A stretch of 64,000 nucleotides of DNA, taken from an uncultured Pseudomonadota bacterium. Lineage in GTDB: Bacteria > Myxococcota_A > Polyangia > Fen-1088. Under the pieces are notes generated by a model that had not been told where the DNA came from, did not search any database, and worked only from the letters and a program-made list of their open reading frames with translations. The stretch spans positions 1-64,000 of the forward strand of contig CAWKBC010000034.1 of assembly GCA_963847705.1 (NCBI GenBank), written 5' to 3'. Below are positions 20,741 through 49,904 of this stretch, one piece after another (positions within the stretch are counted from its first letter, which is position 1; each line of letters opens with the position of its first letter). A program made the translations under genes and the position numbers.

Positions 20741-25042
<4,302 letters not shown>

Positions 25043-25069: not shown

Positions 25070-25109
25070 CGTTGTCTGCGGAACAGCTTCTGTTGCGCCG
25101 GTCGTAACA
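25070..25109. promoter_or_regulatory. Putative enhancer (bEBP binding) site pair, unit 1
   Basis: tgttgc-N7-gtaaca palindrome at 25091 plus a weaker copy at 25070; conserved in all four units. Confidence 0.6.
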
Positions 25110-25168
25110 GGTGGGGCCTCCGGCCCCGCGCTGCGCCCGGATTTGCGCCTTTATGGCCATAGAAACCG

Positions 25169-25186
25169 TTGGCTTGATTACTGCTT
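25169..25186 (+). promoter_or_regulatory. Sigma-54 promoter, unit 1
   Basis: ttGGcttgattactGCtt = GG-N10-GC. Confidence 0.85.
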
Positions 25187-25212
25187 TGTACAAGACCCGT
25201 GACCGACAAACG

Positions 25213-25295
25213 CCTTGTGAACAAACGGCAAAACCCGAGCGATCGGGCGACGCAAAGCCCACGGGACTCTCGCAGTCGGCCGGGCCGCCTCAAGG
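25213..25295 (+). ncRNA. GEMM / c-di-GMP-I class riboswitch, unit 1
   Basis: ggcaaa-P2(cccga GCGA tcggg)-gacgcaaagcc-P3-ggccgggccgcc; P1 ccttg/caagg; discriminator G at 25227. Confidence 0.9.
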
Positions 25296-25306
25296 GGGGT
25301 ATTCAA

Positions 25307-27178
25307 ATGAGAGAACTGGGGAAGCGGACCATCCAAATCAGCATCGCGCTCGGGGCCATCGCCGGCCTGATCGGCTGCGGTGAGCAGTCGAGCGACGTCG
25401 AGACGGGGACCCACGACCTGGGGCTGTCGTCCATCAACGGCCTCAGCTCCATCAACGGCCTGTCGTCGATCAACGGCCTCAGCTCCATCAACGGGCTGTC
25501 GTCCATCAACGGCCTCAGCTCCATCAACGGGCTGTCGTCCATCAACGGCCTCAGCTCCATCAACGGCCTCATGACGAACTCGGGAGGCCGCAAGACGATC
25601 TCCTACCTCGTCAAGTGTGCCCTCGCCGCCAACGACTCCCTGGTCAAGGCGGATCAGAACGGCAACAACTACACCTTCGCCGGCGGCATCGGCCTCTGCC
25701 CCGCCTGGAAGAACGGCGGCGTCTACGGGAACGACCAGTGCATGGAGGCGCTCTCCGCCTGCATGATGGCCCACGTCAACACCGCCGGCGTCCACGTCCC
25801 GCTCTGGCTCGACTCGAACGACACCGCCATCGGCTGGGGCGTCGATCGCGTCAACTTCCCCATGCAGGAGGGAACCTTCTTCGGCGACATCATCGACACC
25901 GGCAATCTGTCGTCGATCGGTAAACCGAATGTGACCGCGCCGGCCGCTTACTACTGCGACGGCGCCGGCTTCCCCACCGGCGCCTCGGGCGTCGTGGCCG
26001 GACGCCTCGGCGCCAGCCAGAGCGGCGCTCCCTACGTGAACCCGTTCGGCACCGGCACTCTCTGTCAGAACAACTCGTCGGCGGTGGGACAGTTCAGCCA
26101 GGGCATCACGGGCAGCTGCCCCGCCGGCTCGAACGCGAACCCCTCGGTCGGTTGCCCTGATGGATACAAGGCGCTCACCACCGGCTCCAACAACGTCTGG
26201 CAGCACGGCATCACCGTGTGGCGCAACAACAACTACACCCCGGTGTTCGACACCAGCTACCAGTACACGCTCTCGGCCGTCGCCACTCAGGGCAGCCCGA
26301 TGGTCATGGACTGCGGCACCTCGCCGATTCAACAGTGGAACGCCTCGGCTGGTCTCGCCACCTCGGTCTTCGTGATGGCGCCCAACGGCTCCAGCTGGAC
26401 CATCTCGCCGATGAACAACACGGCCCAATGCCTCGACGCGGGCGCCGGCAGCGCCGGCACCGGGTTGGTGCTCAACACCTGCAACGGCAGCGCCTCGCAG
26501 AACTGGAACATCAGCGCCAACGCCATGAACGGCAGCTTCAACGTCGCCACGGCCAGCACCGGTCTCTGCATGAACGTCCGCGGCGGCAACACCGCACCGG
26601 GGGCCGTCATGGAGGTCAACACCTGCACGTCTGGCACGGCCAGCCAGCAGTTCAACATCCAGGCGACCGTTGTCGCGGGCAGCACCGCCAACCAGACCAG
26701 CAGCGGCAGCGGCGGTACGGCGGGCACCACCTCGACCTTCGCCTCGTCGCGGACCTACCGCATGGTTCCCCAGAACGCGACCGGCGAGTCGATCGACGTC
26801 GTCGGCGGCAGCCAGGCGACCGGCACCGGGATTCAGCAGTACCAGACCCAGTCCGGCAACATCAACCAGGCCTTCTACCTGCTGGCCAACGGCAGCAACT
26901 GGCAGATCGCGATGGGCGCGAACCAGGCGATGTGCCTGGGCGCCAGCAACAACGGCACGGGCAATGGCACGATGGTCGTGATTCAGAGCTGCAACGGGAG
27001 CACGGCGCAGAGCTACACCGCGCTGCCGATGTCCACCTCGGGCGTGTACGCCTTCCAGAACGTGGCCTCTGGGCGCTGCCTGAACATGCAGGGCCCGAGC
27101 ACGGCGAACGGCGCCCTCATGCAGCTGTACGACTGCGGGAGCACCCCCGGCACCAACGCCCAGTTCAGCATGCAATAA
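25307..27178 (+). CDS. SSINGL-repeat lipoprotein with Cys-rich core and two ricin-type beta-trefoil domains
   Basis: LIGC lipobox; 8x SSINGL; YLVKCAL...SACMMAHVN...EGTFFG core; CLD/C...Q.W(F) ricin motifs in two blocks. Confidence 0.88.
   Translation: MRELGKRTIQISIALGAIAGLIGCGEQSSDVETGTHDLGLSSINGLSSINGLSSINGLSSINGLSSINGLSSINGLSSINGLSSINGLMTNSGGRKTISYLVKCALAANDSLVKADQNGNNYTFAGGIGLCPAWKNGGVYGNDQCMEALSACMMAHVNTAGVHVPLWLDSNDTAIGWGVDRVNFPMQEGTFFGDIIDTGNLSSIGKPNVTAPAAYYCDGAGFPTGASGVVAGRLGASQSGAPYVNPFGTGTLCQNNSSAVGQFSQGITGSCPAGSNANPSVGCPDGYKALTTGSNNVWQHGITVWRNNNYTPVFDTSYQYTLSAVATQGSPMVMDCGTSPIQQWNASAGLATSVFVMAPNGSSWTISPMNNTAQCLDAGAGSAGTGLVLNTCNGSASQNWNISANAMNGSFNVATASTGLCMNVRGGNTAPGAVMEVNTCTSGTASQQFNIQATVVAGSTANQTSSGSGGTAGTTSTFASSRTYRMVPQNATGESIDVVGGSQATGTGIQQYQTQSGNINQAFYLLANGSNWQIAMGANQAMCLGASNNGTGNGTMVVIQSCNGSTAQSYTALPMSTSGVYAFQNVASGRCLNMQGPSTANGALMQLYDCGSTPGTNAQFSMQ
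25421..25570 (+). repeat. Eight 18-nt coding repeats (GLSSIN)
   Basis: Alternating ggcctcagctccatcaac and gggctgtcgtccatcaac variants. Confidence 0.97.
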
Positions 27179-27204
27179 TCGCTGACCTGAAGCAGTCGCC
27201 CCAC

Positions 27205-27246
27205 AACGGCCGGTTCCGCCTCGCGCGGACCGGCCGTTTCCTATTT
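27205..27246 (+). terminator. Intrinsic terminator, unit 1
   Basis: acggccggttccgc...gcggaccggccgt followed by ttcctattt. Confidence 0.75.
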
Positions 27247-27317
27247 GGGCCGACGGCCTGGGGCGACGCCGATGATCCGGGCGGCCCGTCGCACCTGCAC
27301 GCACCAACGCGATGTGA

Positions 27318-27359
27318 TGCTGTTCACGTAACATCCATTCTGTTGTCTGCGATGCAACG
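27318..27359. promoter_or_regulatory. Putative enhancer site pair, unit 2
   Basis: tgttgt-N7-gcaacg at 27341 with a weaker upstream copy. Confidence 0.55.
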
Positions 27360-27419
27360 GGTGGGGCCTCATTCCCCACGAAAACCCCCAGGCCGGGCGG
27401 TCATCCACTCGAATAAACG

Positions 27420-27437
27420 TTGGCTTGATTACTGCTT
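27420..27437 (+). promoter_or_regulatory. Sigma-54 promoter, unit 2
   Basis: ttGGcttgattactGCtt. Confidence 0.85.
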
Positions 27438-27463
27438 TATAGACCCAGTGTGTCTGACCGGCA

Positions 27464-27545
27464 CCTTGTGAACAAACGCAAAACCCGAGCGATCGGGCGA
27501 CGCAAAGCCCACGGGACTCTCGCAGTCGGCCGGGCCGCCTCAAGG
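27464..27545 (+). ncRNA. GEMM / c-di-GMP-I class riboswitch, unit 2 (one G missing at the discriminator)
   Basis: Identical to unit 1 except aaacgcaaa in place of aaacggcaaa; P1 ccttg/caagg overlaps AAGGAGG. Confidence 0.85.
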
Positions 27546-27556
27546 AGGGTATCCAA

Positions 27557-29254
27557 ATGAAAGAGCTTGGGAAACGGACCATCCAAATCAGTTTGGCGCT
27601 TGGCGCCATCGTCGGCTTGATCGGTTGCGGTGAGGAGGCCGGCGATGTCGAGACGGGGACCCATGATCTGGGTCTCTCCTCGATCAATGGCCTCAGCTCC
27701 ATCAACGGGCTGTCGTCCATCAACGGCCTCAGCTCCATCAACGGGCTGTCGTCCATCAACGGCCTCAGCTCCATCAACGGGCTGTCGTCCATCAACGGCC
27801 TCAGCTCCATCAACGGCCTCATGACGAGCTCGGGGGGCCGCAAGACAATCTCCTACCTCGTCAAGTGTGCTCTCGCCGCCAACGACTCCCTGGTCAAGGC
27901 GGACCAGAACGGCACCAACTACACCTTCGCCGGCGGCATCGGCCTCTGCCCGGCCTGGAAGAACGGTGGCGTCTCCACCAACGCCCAGTGCATGGAGGGT
28001 GTCTCCGCCTGCATGATGGCGCACGTCAACACGGCCGGCGTCCACGTGCCGCTCTGGCTCGACTCGAATGACACCGCCATCGGCTGGGGCATCGATCGCG
28101 TCAACTTCCCGATGCAGGAAGGGACCTTCTTCGGCGACATCATGGACACAGGCCCGCTGGGCAACATCGGCAAGGCCCAGATCAAAGGCCCTCTGGCCTA
28201 CTACTGTGACGGCGCCGGCTTCCCGACCGGCTCCAGCGGCGTCGTCGCCGGACGCCTAGGCGCCAACCAGGCCGGGGCTCCCTACACGAACCCCTTCGGC
28301 AACGGCGCCACCTGCCAGAGCGTCACCAACGGGTACACCCCCATCAACACCGGGTACTTCAGCAAGGGCATCGTCGGCAGCTGCCCGCCGGGCTCCAACT
28401 CGAACCCCGCCCAGGGCTGCCCCGACGGCTACCAGTCGCTCCAGTATCCGTACGGCGCGAGCGCGGCGCCCTGGAACCACGCGATCACCGTGTGGCGCAA
28501 CAACACCTACACGCCGGTGTTCGACACCAGCTACCAGTACAGCATCTCGGCCAACGTCACCGCGGGCAACCCGATGGTGATGGACGCCGGCAGCTCACCT
28601 CTCCAGCAGTGGGCCCAGTCGGCCGGGCTCGCCACCTCCATCTTCAACATGGCGCCGAACGGGAGCAACTGGACGATCTCGCCGATGAACAGCGCCGGCA
28701 AGTGTCTGGATGCGGGCGCCGGCACCAACGGCACCGGCCTCGTGCTCAACGCCTGCAACGGCAGCGCTTCGCAGAGCTGGAACATCAAGGCCATCCCGCT
28801 GAACGGCAGCTTCAACGTCGCCGCCGCCAGCACCGGTCGCTGCATCAACGTCCGCGGCGCCAGCCCGGCCCCGGGCGCTGTCATGGAGGTCGATGACTGC
28901 AACGCCAGCTTGACCAGCCAGCAGTTCAACATCCAGGCGACCATCTATGCCGGCGACACCTCCGGCTCGACGGGCTCGACCGGCTCGACCGGCACCAACC
29001 CCTGCGCCTCGTTCTGTGCCAGCCCCACGGAGTTCCCGCAGAGCTTCGCGTCGGGTTCCATCGCCACCACCGCGGCCTGCTATGAGACCACGGCCAGCCT
29101 GGGTGGCGCGCAGCAGAGCAACATGACCGGCAGGACCTTCAGCATCAACGGCACAGCCTTCACCAGCGGCGCGCTGCCTGCCAAGGTCAACGGCGGCTAC
29201 TGCATCCAGGTCGGCGCCGGCGGCCTCAACTACGCTTCCTTCAGCACCTGGTAA
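27557..29254 (+). CDS. SSINGL-repeat lipoprotein with core, one ricin-type domain and Cys-rich C-terminal module
   Basis: Paralog of 25307..27178; ends NPCASFC...LPAKVNGGYCIQ...FSTW. Confidence 0.9.
   Translation: MKELGKRTIQISLALGAIVGLIGCGEEAGDVETGTHDLGLSSINGLSSINGLSSINGLSSINGLSSINGLSSINGLSSINGLSSINGLMTSSGGRKTISYLVKCALAANDSLVKADQNGTNYTFAGGIGLCPAWKNGGVSTNAQCMEGVSACMMAHVNTAGVHVPLWLDSNDTAIGWGIDRVNFPMQEGTFFGDIMDTGPLGNIGKAQIKGPLAYYCDGAGFPTGSSGVVAGRLGANQAGAPYTNPFGNGATCQSVTNGYTPINTGYFSKGIVGSCPPGSNSNPAQGCPDGYQSLQYPYGASAAPWNHAITVWRNNTYTPVFDTSYQYSISANVTAGNPMVMDAGSSPLQQWAQSAGLATSIFNMAPNGSNWTISPMNSAGKCLDAGAGTNGTGLVLNACNGSASQSWNIKAIPLNGSFNVAAASTGRCINVRGASPAPGAVMEVDDCNASLTSQQFNIQATIYAGDTSGSTGSTGSTGTNPCASFCASPTEFPQSFASGSIATTAACYETTASLGGAQQSNMTGRTFSINGTAFTSGALPAKVNGGYCIQVGAGGLNYASFSTW
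27671..27820 (+). repeat. Eight 18-nt coding repeats (GLSSIN)
   Basis: Counted directly in the sequence. Confidence 0.97.
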
Positions 29255-29273
29255 GCGTCGCTTTCCGCGCTCG

Positions 29274-29320
29274 ACCCGACGGCCGGCCCGCCTCGTGCGG
29301 ACCGGCCGTTCGGGTTTTTT
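29274..29320 (+). terminator. Intrinsic terminator, unit 2
   Basis: acccgacggccggcccgc...gcggaccggccgttcgggt followed by a T-tract. Confidence 0.85.
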
Positions 29321-29342
29321 GGGCTCCACCAACGCGGTGCGC

Positions 29343-29384
29343 CGTTGTTCGCGGAGCATCTCGATTGTTGTGCCGGGTGCAACG
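29343..29384. promoter_or_regulatory. Putative enhancer site pair, unit 3
   Basis: cgttgt-N7-gcatct at 29343 and tgttgt-N7-gcaacg at 29366. Confidence 0.6.
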
Positions 29385-29444
29385 CATGGGCACGGGGTTA
29401 CCCACGCAAAGCCCCGATTCCACGAATATTCGGCTAAATAATTG

Positions 29445-29462
29445 TTGGCCCGATTACTGCTT
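29445..29462 (+). promoter_or_regulatory. Sigma-54 promoter, unit 3
   Basis: ttGGcccgattactGCtt = GG-N10-GC. Confidence 0.85.
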
Positions 29463-29488
29463 TATCTTCGAGCTGTGTCGGACCGACA

Positions 29489-29571
29489 CCTTGTGAACAA
29501 ACGGCAAAACCCGAGCGATCGGGCGACGCAAAGCCAGCGGGACTCTCGCAGTCGGCCGGGCTGCCTCGAGG
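29489..29571 (+). ncRNA. GEMM / c-di-GMP-I class riboswitch, unit 3
   Basis: Same P2/P3 architecture; P1 ccttg/cgagg; discriminator G at 29503. Confidence 0.9.
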
Positions 29572-29584
29572 GGGCAATTCAAGA

Positions 29585-31237
29585 ATGAGAGAGCTTGGGA
29601 AACGAACCATCCAGATCAGCATCGCGCTCGGAGCCATCGTCGGCTTGATCGGCTGCGGTGAGCAGTCCAGCGACGTCGAGACGGGCAGCCACGATCTGGG
29701 GCTCTCCTCGATCAACGGCCTCAGCTCCATCAACGGCCTGTCGTCCATCAATGGCCTGTCATCCATCAATGGCCTCAGCTCCATCAACGGGCTGTCGTCC
29801 ATCAACGGCCTCAGCTCCATCAACGGGCTGTCGTCCATCAACGGCCTGATGACCACCTCGGCCGGCCGCAAGACGATCTCCTACCTCGTCAAGTGCGCGC
29901 TCGCCTCCAACGACACGCTCGTCAAGGCGGACCAGAACGGCACCAACTACACCTTCGCTGGTGGCTTCGGTCTTTGCCCCGCCTGGAAGAACGCCGGCGT
30001 CCACAACAGCGCCTCCTGCGAGGAGCTCGTCTCCTCCTGCATGATGGCCCACGTCAACACCGCCGGCGTCCACGTTCCGGTCTGGCTCGACACGAACAAC
30101 GCGGCCATCGGCTGGGGCATCGACAAGGTGAACTACCCCTTCCAGGAGGGATCGTTCTTCGGGAACATCATCGAGACCGGCCCCCTCTCGGGCGTCGGCA
30201 TGCCGAACGTCAGCGGCCCCGTCGGCTACTACTGCGACGGCGCCGGCTTCGCCTCCGGCACCGCGGGCGTGGTCGCCGGCCGCCTCGGCGCCAACCAGCA
30301 GAACTCCCCCTACCGCAACCCGTACGGCAACGGCACCCTCTGCAAGAACGCCCCGGCCAACGTCCCCTACTACACCTACGGCGTCGGCGGCCAGTCCGAC
30401 CCCGACGGCTACCAGAAGCTCGAGATGCCGCCCGGAAACCCCTGGAACAACGCCATCACCGTTTGGCGCAACAACAGCTACAACCCGATCTTCGACACCA
30501 GCTACCAGTACTCGCTGTCGGCGAACATCACTGGCGGCACGATGGTCATGGACGCGGGCAGCTCGCCGGTTCAGCAGTGGAACGCCTCGGCCGGTCTGGT
30601 CACCTCGGTCTTCACCATGGCCCCGAGCGGCTCGAACTGGACCATCTCGCCCATCAGCAGCCCGACGATGTGCCTCGACGCCGGCGCCGCCACCAACTCC
30701 ACCGCCGTCGTCATGTCGGGTTGCAACGGCGGCGCCTCGCAGGCCTGGAGCATCACCCCCGACGTCCAGACCGGTAACTTCTTCGTGAAGGCCTCCAACA
30801 CCGGCCGCTGCATCAACGTCCGCAACGGCAGCACCGCCGCCGGCACGGTCATGGAGGTCCTCGACTGCAACGCCACCTACACCAGCGAGAAGTTCGCCAT
30901 CCAGGCGACCGTCTACGCTGGCGACCAGACGGGCGCCGTCGTCAACACCACCAGCACATCGGGCACCAACCCCTGCGCCTCTTTTTGCTCCGGCCCGACC
31001 GTGATGGCGTCGCAGAGCGACTCGATCACGAACATCAGCACCAACGCCGTCTGCTACGAGAGCACCTACCCCCTGTCCGGCTTCAACTGCGGCAACATGA
31101 GCGGCCGTACCTTCAGCCTCAACGGCCAGACCATCACCTGCGGTGGCAACATGACCCTCCCCGCGAAGGTCAACGGCGGGTACTGCTTCCAGCTGTCCGC
31201 TGGCGGCACGACCTCCGCATACTTCGGCACCTGGTAA
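29585..31237 (+). CDS. SSINGL-repeat lipoprotein with core, one ricin-type domain and Cys-rich C-terminal module
   Basis: Third paralog; LIGC lipobox, 8x SSINGL, ends LPAKVNGGYCFQ...YFGTW. Confidence 0.9.
   Translation: MRELGKRTIQISIALGAIVGLIGCGEQSSDVETGSHDLGLSSINGLSSINGLSSINGLSSINGLSSINGLSSINGLSSINGLSSINGLMTTSAGRKTISYLVKCALASNDTLVKADQNGTNYTFAGGFGLCPAWKNAGVHNSASCEELVSSCMMAHVNTAGVHVPVWLDTNNAAIGWGIDKVNYPFQEGSFFGNIIETGPLSGVGMPNVSGPVGYYCDGAGFASGTAGVVAGRLGANQQNSPYRNPYGNGTLCKNAPANVPYYTYGVGGQSDPDGYQKLEMPPGNPWNNAITVWRNNSYNPIFDTSYQYSLSANITGGTMVMDAGSSPVQQWNASAGLVTSVFTMAPSGSNWTISPISSPTMCLDAGAATNSTAVVMSGCNGGASQAWSITPDVQTGNFFVKASNTGRCINVRNGSTAAGTVMEVLDCNATYTSEKFAIQATVYAGDQTGAVVNTTSTSGTNPCASFCSGPTVMASQSDSITNISTNAVCYESTYPLSGFNCGNMSGRTFSLNGQTITCGGNMTLPAKVNGGYCFQLSAGGTTSAYFGTW
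29699..29848 (+). repeat. Eight 18-nt coding repeats (GLSSIN)
   Basis: Counted directly; synonymous pattern differs from units 1 and 2. Confidence 0.97.
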
Positions 31238-31263
31238 GCGCCCCACTCCACGCTCCACCGAAC

Positions 31264-31302
31264 AACGGCCGGTCCGCCCCCGCGGACCGGCCGTTTCCTT
31301 TT
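31264..31302 (+). terminator. Intrinsic terminator, unit 3
   Basis: aacggccggtccgc-ccc(c)-gcggaccggccgtt followed by tcctttt. Confidence 0.85.
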
Positions 31303-31325
31303 GGGCCGGCGGCGACGCAAGGCGC

Positions 31326-31368
31326 AGTTGTTCAGAAGACAGCTCTTTCTGTTGTGCCCGGAGCAACG
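31326..31368. promoter_or_regulatory. Putative enhancer site pair, unit 4
   Basis: agttgt-N7-acagct at 31326 and tgttgt-N7-gcaacg at 31350. Confidence 0.55.
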
Positions 31369-31429
31369 CAGGGGACTGTTCTACCCACCTCGAAGCCCAG
31401 GTCATTGCCGTATATCACCAAAATAATCG

Positions 31430-31447
31430 TTGGCTTGATTACTGCTT
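31430..31447 (+). promoter_or_regulatory. Sigma-54 promoter, unit 4
   Basis: ttGGcttgattactGCtt. Confidence 0.8.
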
Positions 31448-31472
31448 TGTCGGCTGTCGTGCCGAACCGACA

Positions 31473-31553
31473 TCTGCGAACAACAGCAAAGCCCGAGCGA
31501 TCGGGCGAGGCAAAGCCAACGGGACTCTCGCAGTCGGCCGAGCTGGCTCAAGA
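31473..31553 (+). ncRNA. Divergent GEMM-class riboswitch, unit 4
   Basis: P2 and P3 retained; A at the discriminator (31485); C-to-G changes at 31509 and 31546; weak P1. Confidence 0.7.
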
Positions 31554-31565
31554 GGGGAATCGAAA

Positions 31566-31951
31566 GTGAGCGTGCTTGGAAGACGGACCATTCGGATCAG
31601 TATCGCGGTCGGAGCCATCGTCGGCCTGATCGGCTGCAGTGAGCAAGCCAGCGACGTCGGGATGGGGACCCACGATCTGGGCCTGAGCCGTGCTGAGCGG
31701 CGCCACCAGCATCGCGGCGCAGGTGAAGCTCATCGGCGCCGGGAGCAGCAATCAGGCCGCGATGTCTGCCTCCGCCACTCGAGCACCACCAACAACCACT
31801 GCGCGGCCCTCGGCCCGACGGGCTCAGCATGACTCTCGGGACGACGGTCCTCGGAACGCACACGCCCGCCGCGCTCGCCAGCAGCACTGCCGCCCAGGCG
31901 ACGACGAGCATGACCGCCTCGTTTGACGACGTCGTCTATTCGCAGCCGTAA
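31566..31951 (+). pseudogene. Internally deleted, frameshifted fourth paralog of the SSINGL lipoproteins
   Basis: GTG start and homologous leader to THDLGLS, then loss of repeats and core; out-of-frame remnant ...MTASFDDVVYSQP-TAA before the homologous terminator. Confidence 0.8.
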
Positions 31952-31971
31952 TCAGAGGCGACAGGCTCGAG

Positions 31972-32008
31972 ACGGCCGGTCCGCTCGATGCGGGCCGGCC
32001 CTTCCTTT
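31972..32008 (+). terminator. Intrinsic terminator, unit 4
   Basis: ggccggtccgc-tcgat-gcgggccggcc followed by cttccttt; homologous to the other three. Confidence 0.7.
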
Positions 32009-32028: not shown

Positions 32029-32685
32029 TCAGGCGTCAATCGCCAGGTAGGCCTGGAACGCCGGCACCGACACGAGCTCGCCCGCCGGCAACACCAGCGC
32101 CGTCAAGGAACGGCCGTACACGCAGCCGCTGTCGAGCCCCGTCGCGAATGGGTGTTGCTGCAGCCCACGGACCGCGTCGTGGCCGAACACCACGTGCTCG
32201 GGACCCTTCCAGAGGGACGCCCAGGGCGCGCCCTCGATCCGCTTCGACGGCTCCCCGTCGGCGGTGATGCTGCGGAGGTTGAGCAGATGAGCGCGCGTCT
32301 GCTGCTCGATCGGAGTCCCCGGGACCACCCCGCCGTGAACCACCAGGTAGGGGCGGTCGCCGACCCCGTCGAGACGCAGAAAGAGCGGGCGGGCCTCCAG
32401 CCAGGCGACGTCGGCGGCGCTCAGGCTCTCGGCGACTGCGCGGTGCATCGGGCTGACCCGCCGATCGCCGCGGACCGCGTGAAGCACATGCGCGTCGTGG
32501 TTGCCGAGGACCGCGTCGGCGTTCGATTCGCGCGCCCAGCGCACGACGCCGGCCGAATTGGGGCCCTTGGCCACCAGATCGCCGACCAGCACCACGCGAT
32601 CGTCGGGCGTGCGGCGTGCGGCCGCCAGCAGCGCCAGCAGCTCGTCGAGGCAGCCGTGCACGTCACCGACGACCAGCGTGCGCAT
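32029..32685 (-). CDS. Calcineurin-like metallophosphoesterase (ApaH/PrpE-like)
   Basis: GDVHG, GDLVAKGP, GNHD, VHGG, FGHD, LDSGCVYG. Confidence 0.92.
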   Translation of the reverse strand: MRTLVVGDVHGCLDELLALLAAARRTPDDRVVLVGDLVAKGPNSAGVVRWARESNADAVLGNHDAHVLHAVRGDRRVSPMHRAVAESLSAADVAWLEARPLFLRLDGVGDRPYLVVHGGVVPGTPIEQQTRAHLLNLRSITADGEPSKRIEGAPWASLWKGPEHVVFGHDAVRGLQQHPFATGLDSGCVYGRSLTALVLPAGELVSVPAFQAYLAIDA

Positions 32686-32706
32686 GACCGCCACGCCCAG
32701 GCCGGC

Positions 32707-46475: not shown

Positions 46476-48338
46476 ATGCTTCGGAAACAACCCTACGCGA
46501 TCCTGGCAATTCTTTCGGCGCTCACGGTCGTTCCCGCGTGCGGCAAGGGGAGCTTGAGTGGCGGGTCAGGAGGGAGTGGCAGTGGAAGCGGCGGCCGCGG
46601 CGGTGGCAACGGAACGGGCAGCGGCACCGGCAACGGCGGAAGCAGCTCCGGAGGATCCGGTGGCGGCGTCGACGGCGGCATGGTCACGCAGCCTCCCGTC
46701 TCGGGCCTCAGCCTGTTCGCCGGATCGTCCTGCGGCGGCCCGATCACCGTCGGAAGCTCTCCGGTGCGGCGCCTGTCGCGCATCGAGTACGACAACATGG
46801 TTCGCGACCTCGGGGTCGATCCGAACAACACGCAGCCGGCCACCCAGTTCGTCACGGAGCAGAAGATCGACAACGGCAAGGCCGGTAACTTCAACACCAA
46901 CGCCTATGCCACGATCTCCGGGACGCTGATCAACCAGCAGTATCTGGAAGCGGCCGAAGCGCTGGCGGCCGCCGCGGTCGCGAACAGCAACGTGCTGGCC
47001 GCCCTGCTCCCTTCTTCTTCCTGCGGGACGAAGAACGCCGCCTGCGCGTCGGCCTTCATCACCACCTGGGCCAATCGCGCCTTCCGCGGGCAGCTCGACG
47101 CTGGCGAGACGACGGCGCTCAACACGCTCTACGCCACCGTGAGCGCCCAGTTCGACTTTCCGACCGGCATCCAGGCGGTGATCGAGGCGGTGCTCACCTC
47201 GCCGCGCTTCCTCTTCGTCCTCGAGTTCGGTCAGCCGAGCTCCGACCCCTCCGCCGCCGCGGTTCCGCTGACGCCGATGGAGCTGGCCACCCGCCTGGCG
47301 CTCTACCTGTGGCGCTCCATTCCGGACCAGACCTTGCTCGACGCGGCCAACGGCGTGAACGGCGGCAGCCTGGTCAGCGCCTCCGACGTCGCCACGCAGG
47401 CGACGCGGATGCTCGCCGATCCCAAAGCGACGAGCGCGCTCTCCGACTTCGCCGACCAGTGGCTGGACATCGAGAACATGAACTCGGTCACCAAGGACAC
47501 GCAGTTCACGAAATGGACGTCCAACGTCGCCGCCGACCTCCACACCGAGAGCCTGACCACCTTCACCCAGGCGGTGCTGGGGAACAGCAGCTTCACCTCG
47601 CTGCTCACCTCGGGATCCTCCTACATCAACGGCGATCTGGCCTCGTTCTACGGCCTCTCCGGCAGCCCCACCTTCAGCACCGCGACGACCGTCAACACGG
47701 CGGCCAATCCGCGGATGGGGATCTTGAGCCAGGGGAGCGTGCTGGCCATGCACGCGCACACCTCGCTGCCCTCGCCCACCAAGCGCGGCCGCCTGATCCG
47801 CCAGCAGGTCCTGTGCGAGGAGGTCCCCGACCCGCCCGCCTCGGTCGGGGGCGTGCCGATCCCGCCGCCGCCCGCCAGCATCAGCAGCGGCACGACACGC
47901 GCCGCCTACCTTCAACACGTGTCGGGGAACACCGTGTGCAACAACTGCCACCAGTTCATGGACTGGATCGGGTTCGGCTTCGACAACTACGACGCCACCG
48001 GCGCGTACATCACGCAGGAGAATGCGACCAACGTCGACCCGAGCGGACAGTTCATCCCCTACCCGAACTCCAGCGACATCAGCGGAACCTTCACCGGCAT
48101 GACCGACATGATGACCCAGCTGTCGAAGAGCGAGCAGGTCGACCAGTGCTTCGCGCTGGAGGAGCTTCGCTACGCGCTCCTCCGCTCGGAGACCACCGAA
48201 GACGCCTGCTCGGCGCAGCAGATCTACCAGGCCTTTTCGGGAAGCAACTTCAGCATCTCGAAGCTCCTCGTCGCCGTGGTGAGCAGCAATTCGTTCATGT
48301 ACCGCACGCCGGTGAGCGCGGGCCAAGCCTGTCAATAG
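46476..48338 (+). CDS. DUF1592/DUF1588-type (PSD/PSCyt) lipoprotein
   Basis: RRLSR.EY.N.VRDL, RAFR, L.SPRFL, ELATRL.L.LW.S.PD, SPTKRG, C..CH..D..G..F..YD..G. Confidence 0.88.
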   Translation: MLRKQPYAILAILSALTVVPACGKGSLSGGSGGSGSGSGGRGGGNGTGSGTGNGGSSSGGSGGGVDGGMVTQPPVSGLSLFAGSSCGGPITVGSSPVRRLSRIEYDNMVRDLGVDPNNTQPATQFVTEQKIDNGKAGNFNTNAYATISGTLINQQYLEAAEALAAAAVANSNVLAALLPSSSCGTKNAACASAFITTWANRAFRGQLDAGETTALNTLYATVSAQFDFPTGIQAVIEAVLTSPRFLFVLEFGQPSSDPSAAAVPLTPMELATRLALYLWRSIPDQTLLDAANGVNGGSLVSASDVATQATRMLADPKATSALSDFADQWLDIENMNSVTKDTQFTKWTSNVAADLHTESLTTFTQAVLGNSSFTSLLTSGSSYINGDLASFYGLSGSPTFSTATTVNTAANPRMGILSQGSVLAMHAHTSLPSPTKRGRLIRQQVLCEEVPDPPASVGGVPIPPPPASISSGTTRAAYLQHVSGNTVCNNCHQFMDWIGFGFDNYDATGAYITQENATNVDPSGQFIPYPNSSDISGTFTGMTDMMTQLSKSEQVDQCFALEELRYALLRSETTEDACSAQQIYQAFSGSNFSISKLLVAVVSSNSFMYRTPVSAGQACQ

Positions 48339-48356
48339 ATCAACGAAAGCCTGTCT

Positions 48357-49904
48357 ATGAACAAACGCAAAATACAGCTTGAACGGAGACACTTCCTGCA
48401 GCTGGTGGGCGCCTCCGCCCTCACCTATCCCTTCCTGCGCGGTGTCCCCAGCTACGCCGCCGCCAGCGGAAGCGCGCCGACCTACCTGGTCTTGGTGTTC
48501 ACCCCTTGTGGCTGCGTCCGCCCGGTCTGGGGTGCCACCGACATGAGCGGGGCGTCGATCCCCCGTCCGGCTTCCGGCGCGGCGCCGACGCTCACCAGCA
48601 ACTTCAAGTTCCGCAGCACGCTCGCCCCGTTCGCCACGGGGGGGACCGTCGGGGGCAGCTCCTGGACGACGAACTTGCAGTCCAAGGTGCTGGTCCTCGA
48701 CGGCCTCAACAACAAGGCGGCCCAGGGATCGCACGAGGCGGGCATGGCGTCGCTCTGGACCGGTCAGATCTCCACGGGCAATCAGGCGACGAGCATCAGC
48801 ATCGATCAGCAGATCAGCGCCCTGCTCAAGGCCGGCACGGCGCTCCCGTCGATCCAGCTGATGGTCCGCGACCCCGCCGACTTCACCGATCGCGAGGTGA
48901 AGACGCGCATGCTCTACAACGCGGCCGGCGTCTTCGTCGATCCGATCGACGATCCGACCACCGCGGCGTCGACCTTCTTTCCGGCCATGTCTTCGACCAA
49001 CACGGGGCCGGACAAGACGACGTTCATCCGGCAGCAGCTGTTCGGCAGCGGGACGCAGGCGGGCGAGCTCAACAGCGAGCTGAACAATCTGATGCCCAAG
49101 CTCTGCACCCAGGACCGCACCCAGCTGCAGGCGTTGCAGGACGGCTGGAACAACCTCTACACGCAGCTGCAGGCGGCGGCGACCGCGTCGGCGAAGTGCA
49201 CGCCGCCCGGGGCGATCAGCGTCAGCACCGACTTCCCCACCAACGCCAAGCAGCAGATGGACATCCTGGCGCTGGCGCTGGCCTGCGATCTCACCCGGGT
49301 GGCGAGCCTGCAGTTCTCCACGTCCACCAGCCAGGTGACGCACAGCTGGCTCAGCACCAGCCAGAACCCCCAGAACAACAGCCACCACAACTTCTCGCAC
49401 ATGGGCCCGACCTACCTGGGCGCGCTCGCCATGTGCCAGGGCTACAACAACATGGGCCAGTGCACGGGCGTCACCGACATGTACAGCGCCAGCAACGTGA
49501 ACCTCTATCAGAGCGCTCCCCAGCAGGAAGCGATCGACCAGTTTTACGCCACGCAGGTCGCCTACCTGGCGCAGAAGCTCAATGGGCTCTCGGGTGCCAA
49601 CGGCGGCTCGCTGCTCGATCAGTCGGTGCTCTGCTGGGGGAACGAGCTCGACATGGGGGCGGCCCACAACCACGACGACACGCCGTTCGTCCTGGTGGGC
49701 GGCGCCAATGGTCAGCTCAAGACCGGCAACCTGGTGACCTTCCCGCTCGATCTCGTCGACGGCAGCGAGGCCACCGCCGCGATGAACGACCGGTCGCACA
49801 ACGATCTGCTCCTCACGCTGGCGAAGGTGATGGGCACGCCGATGACCACCTTTGGCGAGCCGACCTACTGCACCGGTCCGATCACGCAGATCCTGAACTC
49901 GTAG
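48357..49904 (+). CDS. DUF1552-family protein with Tat signal
   Basis: RRHFL Tat motif, SIDQ.I, ALACDLTRV.SL, H..SH, GSLLD.S, H...D.PF.L.G. Confidence 0.88.
   Translation: MNKRKIQLERRHFLQLVGASALTYPFLRGVPSYAAASGSAPTYLVLVFTPCGCVRPVWGATDMSGASIPRPASGAAPTLTSNFKFRSTLAPFATGGTVGGSSWTTNLQSKVLVLDGLNNKAAQGSHEAGMASLWTGQISTGNQATSISIDQQISALLKAGTALPSIQLMVRDPADFTDREVKTRMLYNAAGVFVDPIDDPTTAASTFFPAMSSTNTGPDKTTFIRQQLFGSGTQAGELNSELNNLMPKLCTQDRTQLQALQDGWNNLYTQLQAAATASAKCTPPGAISVSTDFPTNAKQQMDILALALACDLTRVASLQFSTSTSQVTHSWLSTSQNPQNNSHHNFSHMGPTYLGALAMCQGYNNMGQCTGVTDMYSASNVNLYQSAPQQEAIDQFYATQVAYLAQKLNGLSGANGGSLLDQSVLCWGNELDMGAAHNHDDTPFVLVGGANGQLKTGNLVTFPLDLVDGSEATAAMNDRSHNDLLLTLAKVMGTPMTTFGEPTYCTGPITQILNS

Follow-up and report, generated by a model that had tools for sequence, protein, structure and literature searches.

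Tandem lipoprotein cassettes with sigma-54-type promoters and predicted c-di-GMP-I riboswitches belong to a genus-wide family in uncultured Polyangia

Several described systems resemble parts of the locus reported here, a four-unit array of lipoprotein genes in a stretch of 64,000 nucleotides (the window; positions 1 to 64,000 of the forward strand of contig CAWKBC010000034.1, assembly GCA_963847705.1) from an uncultured bacterium of the lineage Myxococcota_A; Polyangia; Fen-1088. The C. difficile CD1980.2 genes are likewise multicopy paralogues that each have a class I riboswitch for cyclic di-GMP (c-di-GMP), with one copy broken, and they are repressed at high c-di-GMP; they are dispersed, encode 58-residue membrane peptides for sporulation and are proposed to act by premature termination, and no sigma-54 layer is mentioned in the part of that account available to us (PMC13724677). 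In Geobacter, with its GEMM-Ib riboswitches and the Hypr enzyme GacA, many riboswitches likewise precede surface and secreted proteins of several families (cytochromes, pili, transpeptidases) and GGDEF enzymes of the Ser type occur, and RpoN control of these targets is not mentioned in the available portions of the two accounts (PMC6456294, PMC2700814). With the NtrC-like regulators FleQ, VpsR and Myxococcus EpsI/Nla24, surface structures are likewise controlled by both an enhancer-binding protein and c-di-GMP, although in the accessible text it is a protein that senses the dinucleotide (PMC4877007).

In the array described here the predicted sensor is instead carried by the mRNA, most aptamers of the family have the G20 of c-di-GMP receptors, and the products are modular lipoproteins of 400-670 residues whose genes are partly in tandem and lie behind an enhancer-type promoter. 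Our reading, which we consider moderately probable, is that the array belongs to one genus-wide family of surface glycan-binding, adhesin-like lipoproteins with interchangeable ends, whose expression would be gated ON by an activator and OFF by c-di-GMP. Every part is of a known kind, and the stacking of the parts and the protein family were not found in print: the literature searched, which leaves subscription papers and supplements outside its coverage, gave no account of duplicated cassettes that stack a riboswitch on an enhancer-type sigma-54 promoter, of a regulon of this kind in Polyangia or of the protein family. An initial sequence-only reading of the window had held that no system of this architecture was described, which stands for the stacking but not for families with one riboswitch per paralogue, since the C. 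difficile account, as far as available, describes one (PMC13724677).

The array lies between lhr (20741-25042) and a calcineurin-like phosphoesterase gene on the minus strand (32029-32694). Its units share one order of elements: two palindromic sites, the word GTTGGC-N4-TTACTGC, a c-di-GMP-I aptamer ~30 bp past that word, a lipoprotein gene whose start codon lies 14-16 bases past the aptamer, and a GC-rich hairpin with a T-run, which follows all four units where a homologous terminator had been proposed. The four units had been described as complete, and all elements do lie where they had been placed; the gene of unit 4, however, is deleted and frameshifted and its aptamer is damaged. The features are as follows.

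25070..25109, plus strand: unit 1 tandem enhancer-like sites (weak site 25070-25088; main site TGTTG-N9-TAACA 25091-25109)
25168..25184, plus strand: unit 1 sigma-54-type -24/-12 promoter, GTTGGC-N4-TTACTGC
25213..25295, plus strand: unit 1 c-di-GMP-I aptamer with P1 (RF01051 match 25217-25292); G20, C92; P1 3' strand overlaps the Shine-Dalgarno sequence
25307..27178, plus strand: lipoprotein 1, 623 residues; lipobox LIGC, 8x SSINGL, Cys-rich core, two ricin-type domains
27205..27248, plus strand: unit 1 terminator-like hairpin and T-run
27315..27359, plus strand: unit 2 tandem enhancer-like sites (main site 27341-27359)
27419..27435, plus strand: unit 2 sigma-54-type promoter
27467..27545, plus strand: unit 2 c-di-GMP-I aptamer (RF01051 match 27467-27542); C at position 20, C92
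27557..29254, plus strand: lipoprotein 2, 565 residues; repeat, core, one ricin-type domain, small Cys-containing C-terminal domain ending NGGYC...W
29279..29319, plus strand: unit 2 terminator-like hairpin and T-run
29343..29384, plus strand: unit 3 tandem enhancer-like sites (main site 29366-29384)
29444..29460, plus strand: unit 3 sigma-54-type promoter
29493..29571, plus strand: unit 3 c-di-GMP-I aptamer (RF01051 match 29493-29568); G20, C92
29585..31237, plus strand: lipoprotein 3, 550 residues; architecture as lipoprotein 2
31265..31302, plus strand: unit 3 terminator-like hairpin and T-run
31326..31368, plus strand: unit 4 tandem enhancer-like sites (main site 31350-31368)
31429..31445, plus strand: unit 4 sigma-54-type promoter, intact
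31475..31550, plus strand: unit 4 degenerate aptamer (A20, G44, G92, weak P1, 35 bits)
31566..31951, plus strand: unit 4 pseudogene; signal peptide and leader, then frameshifted remains of a C-terminal domain; no repeat, core or ricin domain
31972..32008, plus strand: unit 4 terminator-like hairpin

Enhancer-dependent sigma-54 promoters have a fixed GG-N10-GC and usually paired activator sites ~70-150 bp upstream. All four promoter words (starting at 25168, 27419, 29444 and 31429) contain GG-N10-GC, and the main palindromes lie 80, 81, 81 and 82 bp upstream of the GG in units 1 to 4, close to the ~80 bp first proposed, and another, weaker site lies 21-26 bp upstream of each. We compared the source genome (G000, 6.1 Mb) with 24 congeneric genomes and 16 other genomes of the class Polyangia. 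A promoter matrix built from 55 relatives' sites, in all of which 12 positions are invariant, scores above 14 bits across G000 only at the six cassettes of this family, and the exact promoter word occurs in 90 copies in 23 of the 24 congeneric genomes and in none of the 16 others (reversed control, 1). The genes behind promoter words at 17 previously unassigned loci proved to be family members or remnants, save a Ser/Thr kinase gene in four genomes. The palindrome TGTTG-N9-CAACR, with at most one mismatch, precedes 94 of 96 promoters, compared with a single one of 3000 positions drawn at random from the genome and 11 of 2880 shuffled controls. Its distance from the promoter falls into steps of 67-74 bp (19 cases), 79-83 bp (62), 91-94 bp (4), 100-102 bp (4) and 114-123 bp (5), with a best period of ~11 bp, and in 67 of the 94 cases a weaker second palindrome lies 20-24 bp, or two turns, upstream. 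Because the GG-N10-GC spacing is invariant and the paired palindromes stand upstream in helical steps, we read these sites as a putative sigma-54 promoter with its enhancer.

The Ser/Thr kinase gene (L201, L204, L205, L206) shares the promoter word of the family and has a palindrome 114-116 bp further upstream; its copy in L205 lies behind a family gene.

The aptamers were examined with the Rfam c-di-GMP-I model that the sequence-only reading had proposed for them. Units 1 to 3 match RF01051 above gathering (43.7, 39.4 and 48.3 bits), and unit 4, at 35.0 bits, lies at the cut-off of 35. The likeness to c-di-GMP-I (GEMM-I, RF01051) and GEMM-Ib riboswitches extends from the covariance match to P1-P3, the GNRA loop and, in units 1 and 3, to G20 and C92, the c-di-GMP contacts according to the available account (PMC6140456). 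P1 pairs CCUUG/CCUG with CAAGG/CAGG, one pair being U-A in 33 and C-G in 16 of 61 leaders, and reaches at least 4 pairs in 49 of the 61. It has 5.09 pairs on average, against 4.76 +/- 0.10 when strands are swapped among 55 haplotypes (2 of 2000 swaps reach the observed value) and 2.19 when they are shuffled. In all six leaders of G000, P1 hardly forms without ligand (P at most 0.055). In units 1-3 the 3' strand of P1 stops 11-13 bases short of the start codon, so that the riboswitch does overlap the ribosome-binding site as proposed but covers only the first 2-3 Shine-Dalgarno bases. Because P1 covaries and overlaps the Shine-Dalgarno sequence, a translational OFF switch is favoured; control would thus apparently be translational here, as opposed to transcriptional in the tested Geobacter and C. 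difficile examples in the texts available. Whole-leader minimum-energy folds miss the aptamer and were excluded from the analysis of direction. A GTGTCGGACCGACAC-type hairpin lies right behind the predicted start site (window 25200-25213, 27450-27463 and 29476-29490) and is frequent, not universal, in leaders.

The base at position 20 varies among the paralogues. As far as the published work was available, G20 reads c-di-GMP and A20, found in GEMM-Ib, admits cyclic GMP-AMP (cGAMP) (PMC6140456, PMC6456294). Units 1 and 3 have G20/C92, unit 2 has C20/C92, and unit 4 has A20/G92 and lacks the contact bases, so the GEMM-Ib signature, A20 in an intact pocket, occurs in none of the four units. Of 61 family aptamers, 40 have G at position 20, 18 have C and 3 have A, and A20 together with C92 occurs in two relatives' aptamers (G004, G013). 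No description of the ligand preference of natural C20 aptamers was found, key GEMM-Ib/Hypr primary papers and supplements lying outside the literature covered. G000 encodes 17 GGDEF domains, two of which (L192, C34:215128; L193, C44:23513) combine an active GGDEF motif with Ser at the Hypr position. Ser for Asp at this nucleobase-reading position is described, in the available text, as the signature of Hypr cGAMP synthases (PMC6456294), and these two enzymes are possible cGAMP synthases. Because position 20 varies among paralogues and two Hypr-like cyclases are present, control split between c-di-GMP and cGAMP is possible.

The array is not a stand-alone locus but, judging from the genome comparison, one site of a dispersed genus-wide system. 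The core of the proteins is encoded in all 24 congeneric genomes (2 to 15 matches each), with weak matches in 2 of the 16 other members of the class, and RF01051 gives at least 61 hits, spread over 24 of 24 congeneric genomes, and also matches one of the 16 others; 82 candidates were scored per genome in this survey of relatives, and the RF01051 counts are lower bounds. All six RF01051 hits of G000 sit before family genes, namely the four array units, C27:349592 and C1:177220. Of the 67 aptamers in G000 and the 24 congeners, 61 stand ahead of a family gene, which was recognised by tblastn in 59 cases and, in two cases where the contig ends, from a leader of 12 residues. A TGG-N9-TGC site lies 16-44 bp before the aptamer in every one of these 61 leaders and before none of the six other aptamers. 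The core, the riboswitch and the sigma-54-type motif thus occur together in relatives as anticipated, and almost all c-di-GMP-I riboswitches found in the genus stand before genes of a single protein family, which sets them apart from other riboswitches of this class.

Of the six non-family aptamers, five precede another protein of ~517-535 residues and one a small secreted protein. The 517-535-residue protein (L121, L122, L123, L124 and L125, in five genomes) has a His/Arg-rich N-terminal stretch and, in the one copy scanned, no Pfam match; in L121 its gene follows a variant GG-N10-GC site ending TTACTGC.

Gating at two levels had been proposed for every paralogue. This holds for the aptamer-bearing family leaders, 61 of 61 of which have the promoter, but not for 40 further family loci, where a profile that recovers 6 of 6 aptamers in G000 found none. 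Among these 40 loci 18 have the exact promoter, 26 the palindrome and 31 either one. On a quick tree the presence of the riboswitch switches 3 to 11 times, and the riboswitch is, from this distribution, an apparently optional, detachable second layer in the family. For the aptamer-bearing copies, invariant spacing, helical phasing and covariation support a predicted double gate of sigma-54/enhancer and riboswitch. Contigs from four metatranscriptome runs (four studies) cover 27-28 of 30 bins at 80% likeness, mainly in the three intact genes; these contigs derive from relatives, the runs were picked for containing these words and there was no silent-stretch control, so this coverage is not evidence of transcription.

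The three intact proteins share one layout: a lipoprotein signal read directly from the sequence (MRELGKR...LGAIVGLIG-C24, with a basic N-region, a hydrophobic stretch and lipobox Cys24), a short disordered linker, eight SSINGL repeats, a Cys-rich core of ~220 residues and a C-terminal cargo. The repeat, core and ricin-type domain are present in all three, as first described. The C-termini had been said to differ, and protein 1 does differ from the other two; proteins 2 and 3, however, end in one and the same kind of domain (55% identical), which leaves two intact types of C-terminus and not three. PF14200 (ricin-type/CBM13) scores above its cut-off in all three proteins. The model of protein 2 is confident across repeat, core and ricin domain (mean predicted local distance difference test score, pLDDT, 82), and the ricin domain is a beta-trefoil (Foldseek template-modelling score 0.84 to ThreeFoil and 0.83 to CBM13, with galactanase and xylanase binding domains among the top matches). 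Within the genus the cargo is none, one ricin domain, two ricin domains, ricin plus the small NGGYC domain, or ricin plus the domain formerly present in unit 4; further afield it is CBM2, CBM4/9, CBM6-like, CBM13-like or F5/8. A scan of 24 long proteins representing the family found a carbohydrate-binding-type domain in 18, no Pfam match in 6 and a catalytic domain in none. These domain assignments support products that are lipoproteins with predicted glycan-binding domains. An otherwise unrelated lipoprotein rich in Gly and Thr (G000:C26:7822-8091), which has no Pfam match, ends in the same NGGYC domain as proteins 2 and 3.

At 50% identity the family headed by the core comprises 1198 clusters; the core has no match in Pfam or NCBIfam. 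For the repeat-plus-core model (pLDDT 84.6), Foldseek found no match in the PDB at E 0.001, and VIA-align against 48,161 representatives gave a best Z of 2.6 with a root-mean-square deviation of 4.2 over 52 residues, a result that shows neither a new nor a different fold. A trimer prediction for repeat plus core scored 0.00, which speaks neither for nor against a trimer. Myxobacterial GLTT-repeat and ADYC lipoproteins (PF01744, PF20032) likewise have N-terminal NGL repeats ahead of a Cys-rich domain, and GLTT matches two family members; their repeat has five residues as opposed to six here, and carbohydrate-binding cargo is the feature of this family. The Atlas clusters nearest to the core come from Myxococcota, and 13-98% of their members have ADYC (best score 0.89), which is a lead only. 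PF20032 has no match in the three intact proteins, and none in G000 either, with control genomes equally silent.

Each unit has its own sites, promoter, aptamer and terminator, and this supports the earlier proposal that whole regulated cassettes, not genes alone, were copied. Identity between units is 55-71% in the spacers, 72-79% in the cores and 87-99% in the aptamers. In a tree limited to a quick search, with 78 of 83 rows (the other 5 lacked anchor motifs), units 1, 2 and 3 each cluster with copies from elsewhere and not with one another. Because the spacers are only 55-71% identical and the paralogue lineages are common to different species, the copies are old. A recent tandem amplification or an assembly artefact of the array is ruled out by the spacer and core identities and by the recurrence of arrays at this locus in relatives. 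The interval between lhr, the phosphoesterase gene and a cyclophilin gene holds 1 to 4 units depending on the genome, and sometimes just a deleted remnant; by this comparison it is the apparent ancestral seat of the family, expanding and contracting. Outside the array (G000:C27:347742-349717), a near-copy of unit 1, complete with promoter and aptamer, is 90% identical in the core and 97-99% in the ricin domains, which suggests a recent copy or gene conversion.

The gene of unit 4 consists of 41 leader codons fused to frameshifted remnants of a C-terminal domain. A family member in the relative G017 has this domain entire, and the remnants match it in three pieces at 75-92% identity. In the unit 4 aptamer conserved bases have been replaced (A20, G44, G92), and the promoter and enhancer-like sites are retained. 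On this pattern unit 4 is a predicted deletion pseudogene; an assembly error at this place may be the alternative. Family leaders also stand ahead of short unrelated or deleted coding stretches in five other places (L196, L197, L200, L203, L212), and because four of these sit at the lhr-phosphoesterase locus, decay of units there appears to be recurrent. A frameshifted core-only family gene elsewhere in G000 (L191, C30:390297-391450) has a palindrome upstream and a variant promoter-like site, and no riboswitch.

G000 has rpoN and ~43 activator-type genes. One of 12 exact palindromes in the genome, a perfect TGTTG-N9-CAACA, lies 66-70 bp before a REC-AAA-HTH gene without GAFTGA (L190, C14:82843-85218; protein C14:82909), which is followed by a FliA-like sigma gene. 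Orthologues occur in all 24 congeneric genomes, and the palindrome is retained in 20 of the 21 that have upstream DNA, 4 of them without a recognisable HTH. The sole G000 paralogue that shares the HTH of this protein (NRTTLVEKLRR) is a REC-AAA-HTH protein with an intact GSFTGA (L195, C41:5846-7210), which matches FleQ at E 7e-82 among other NtrC proteins. By these shared features the C41 protein is the likeliest candidate activator of the family, and its GAFTGA-less twin may be a target and possibly an antagonist.

In the mechanism we propose, an NtrC-type activator, most likely the C41 protein, would bind the tandem TGTTG-N9-CAACR sites and loop to sigma-54 polymerase at GG-N10-GC. Dinucleotide binding would then close P1, whose 3' strand would capture the first Shine-Dalgarno purines, and translation would fall. 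The lipid-anchored repeat and core would display ricin/CBM13, CBM2, CBM4/9, CBM6-like or F5/8-type domains, and these might bind polysaccharide surfaces, substrates or prey in a low-c-di-GMP foraging state. An adhesin, lectin or fibre repertoire had been suggested from the start; the glycan-binding-type domains agree with the adhesin or lectin part, whereas the fibre idea is without support.

Each rival explanation departs from this proposal in a single step, and each draws on findings that weigh against it. For the protein, the main rival keeps the regulation the same and makes the core a secreted enzyme of unrecognised type whose substrate is polysaccharide or cell wall, with the C-terminal domains as targeting modules. 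The appended domains are of kinds seen on glycoside hydrolases, the structural matches of the ricin domain to galactanase and xylanase binding domains point the same way, core-only family members exist (L188, L189), and nine residues of the core (R95, Y100, S150, H156, N158, H163, E188, R233 and R314 in protein 2) are kept in 85-99% of representatives less than 60% identical. Because of the core-only members and the invariant polar residues, an enzyme fits as well as an adhesin on these points, but no catalytic family was found in Pfam or NCBIfam, a distant G000 member (C27:203156) has R instead of H156, and a good part of the conservation falls on Cys, Gly and aromatic residues and looks scaffold-like. 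We therefore regard an enzyme as possible, though on the unlikely side, and among functions an adhesin as likeliest, with an unknown glycan-active enzyme as its main rival. For the riboswitch, the aptamer's own CCUC could hide the Shine-Dalgarno sequence until ligand frees the remaining G run, which would make it an ON switch and the proteins biofilm or matrix parts at high c-di-GMP. A local CCUC/GGGG hairpin of -3.8 to -7.3 kcal/mol is available in units 1-3, 3-4 purines remain unpaired once P1 is closed, and in Myxococcus c-di-GMP rises in development and drives exopolysaccharide genes via an NtrC-like receptor, according to the accessible part of that account (PMC4877007). An energy comparison using the genome's own 16S end scored 5 of the 47 leaders with a P1 of at least 4 pairs as ON, and because CCUC can pair the Shine-Dalgarno sequence without ligand, the OFF margin is marginal in units 1 (0.4 kcal/mol) and 3 (1.3 kcal/mol). 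The other 42 of 47 leaders scored OFF, and in AGGAG-type leaders P1 sequesters the entire Shine-Dalgarno core, the rival hairpin is near zero and OFF margins reach 8 kcal/mol. Class I switches also mostly act OFF in C. difficile, in the text available (PMC13724677), and we consider an ON switch quite improbable.

For the promoter, the upstream words could be a lineage-specific operator or the promoter of another sigma factor, such as the FliA-like sigma encoded behind the GAFTGA-less regulator, and not a sigma-54 enhancer system. The usual sigma-54 -12 consensus is TTGC, whereas the -12 element here is ACTGC, and TTAC is invariant in 55 of 55 sites, tighter than the typical sigma-54 consensus, which may mean that another protein reads it. 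Ahead of the regulator-fliA operon, too, there is a palindrome, and no GG-N10-GC site follows it. Against this, the GG-N10-GC spacing is constant and paired palindromes stand 70-120 bp upstream in helical steps, and we judge a non-sigma-54 system very unlikely. The palindrome was found at none of five C41-type loci examined, and because by itself it is not enriched in G000 (12 exact copies at spacer 9, against 2-21 at other spacers), the choice of activator draws on one conserved site and on HTH identity. The surveyed genomes are moreover kin, and their counts are not independent events.

A bolder version of the proposed activator-ON, c-di-GMP-OFF gate would have a switchable repertoire on a scaffold or enzyme core of new fold under one activator, with position 20 assigning paralogues to c-di-GMP or to cGAMP from the two Hypr-like cyclases, and with the GAFTGA-less twin, co-transcribed with the FliA-like sigma, feeding back on the activator's own sites. 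We hold this version doubtful; if it were true, two second messengers would choose which glycan-binding tips the cell displays.

The comparison provides a complete testable wiring for a widespread uncultured soil genus of Myxococcota, with an activator site, promoter, riboswitch, targets and a candidate activator and antagonist; the literature searched contained no published c-di-GMP riboswitch regulon from this phylum. In the 61 natural aptamers the frame is uniform apart from the specificity position, which is G, C or A, and together they make a ready panel for studying discrimination between c-di-GMP and cGAMP. For the uncharacterised family of 1198 clusters, riboswitch control and carbohydrate-binding cargo hint at where its function lies.

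Elsewhere in the window (46476-49901), a DUF1592/1588/1595/1585 gene is followed by a DUF1552 gene, a pairing that is common in myxobacteria and planctomycetes.

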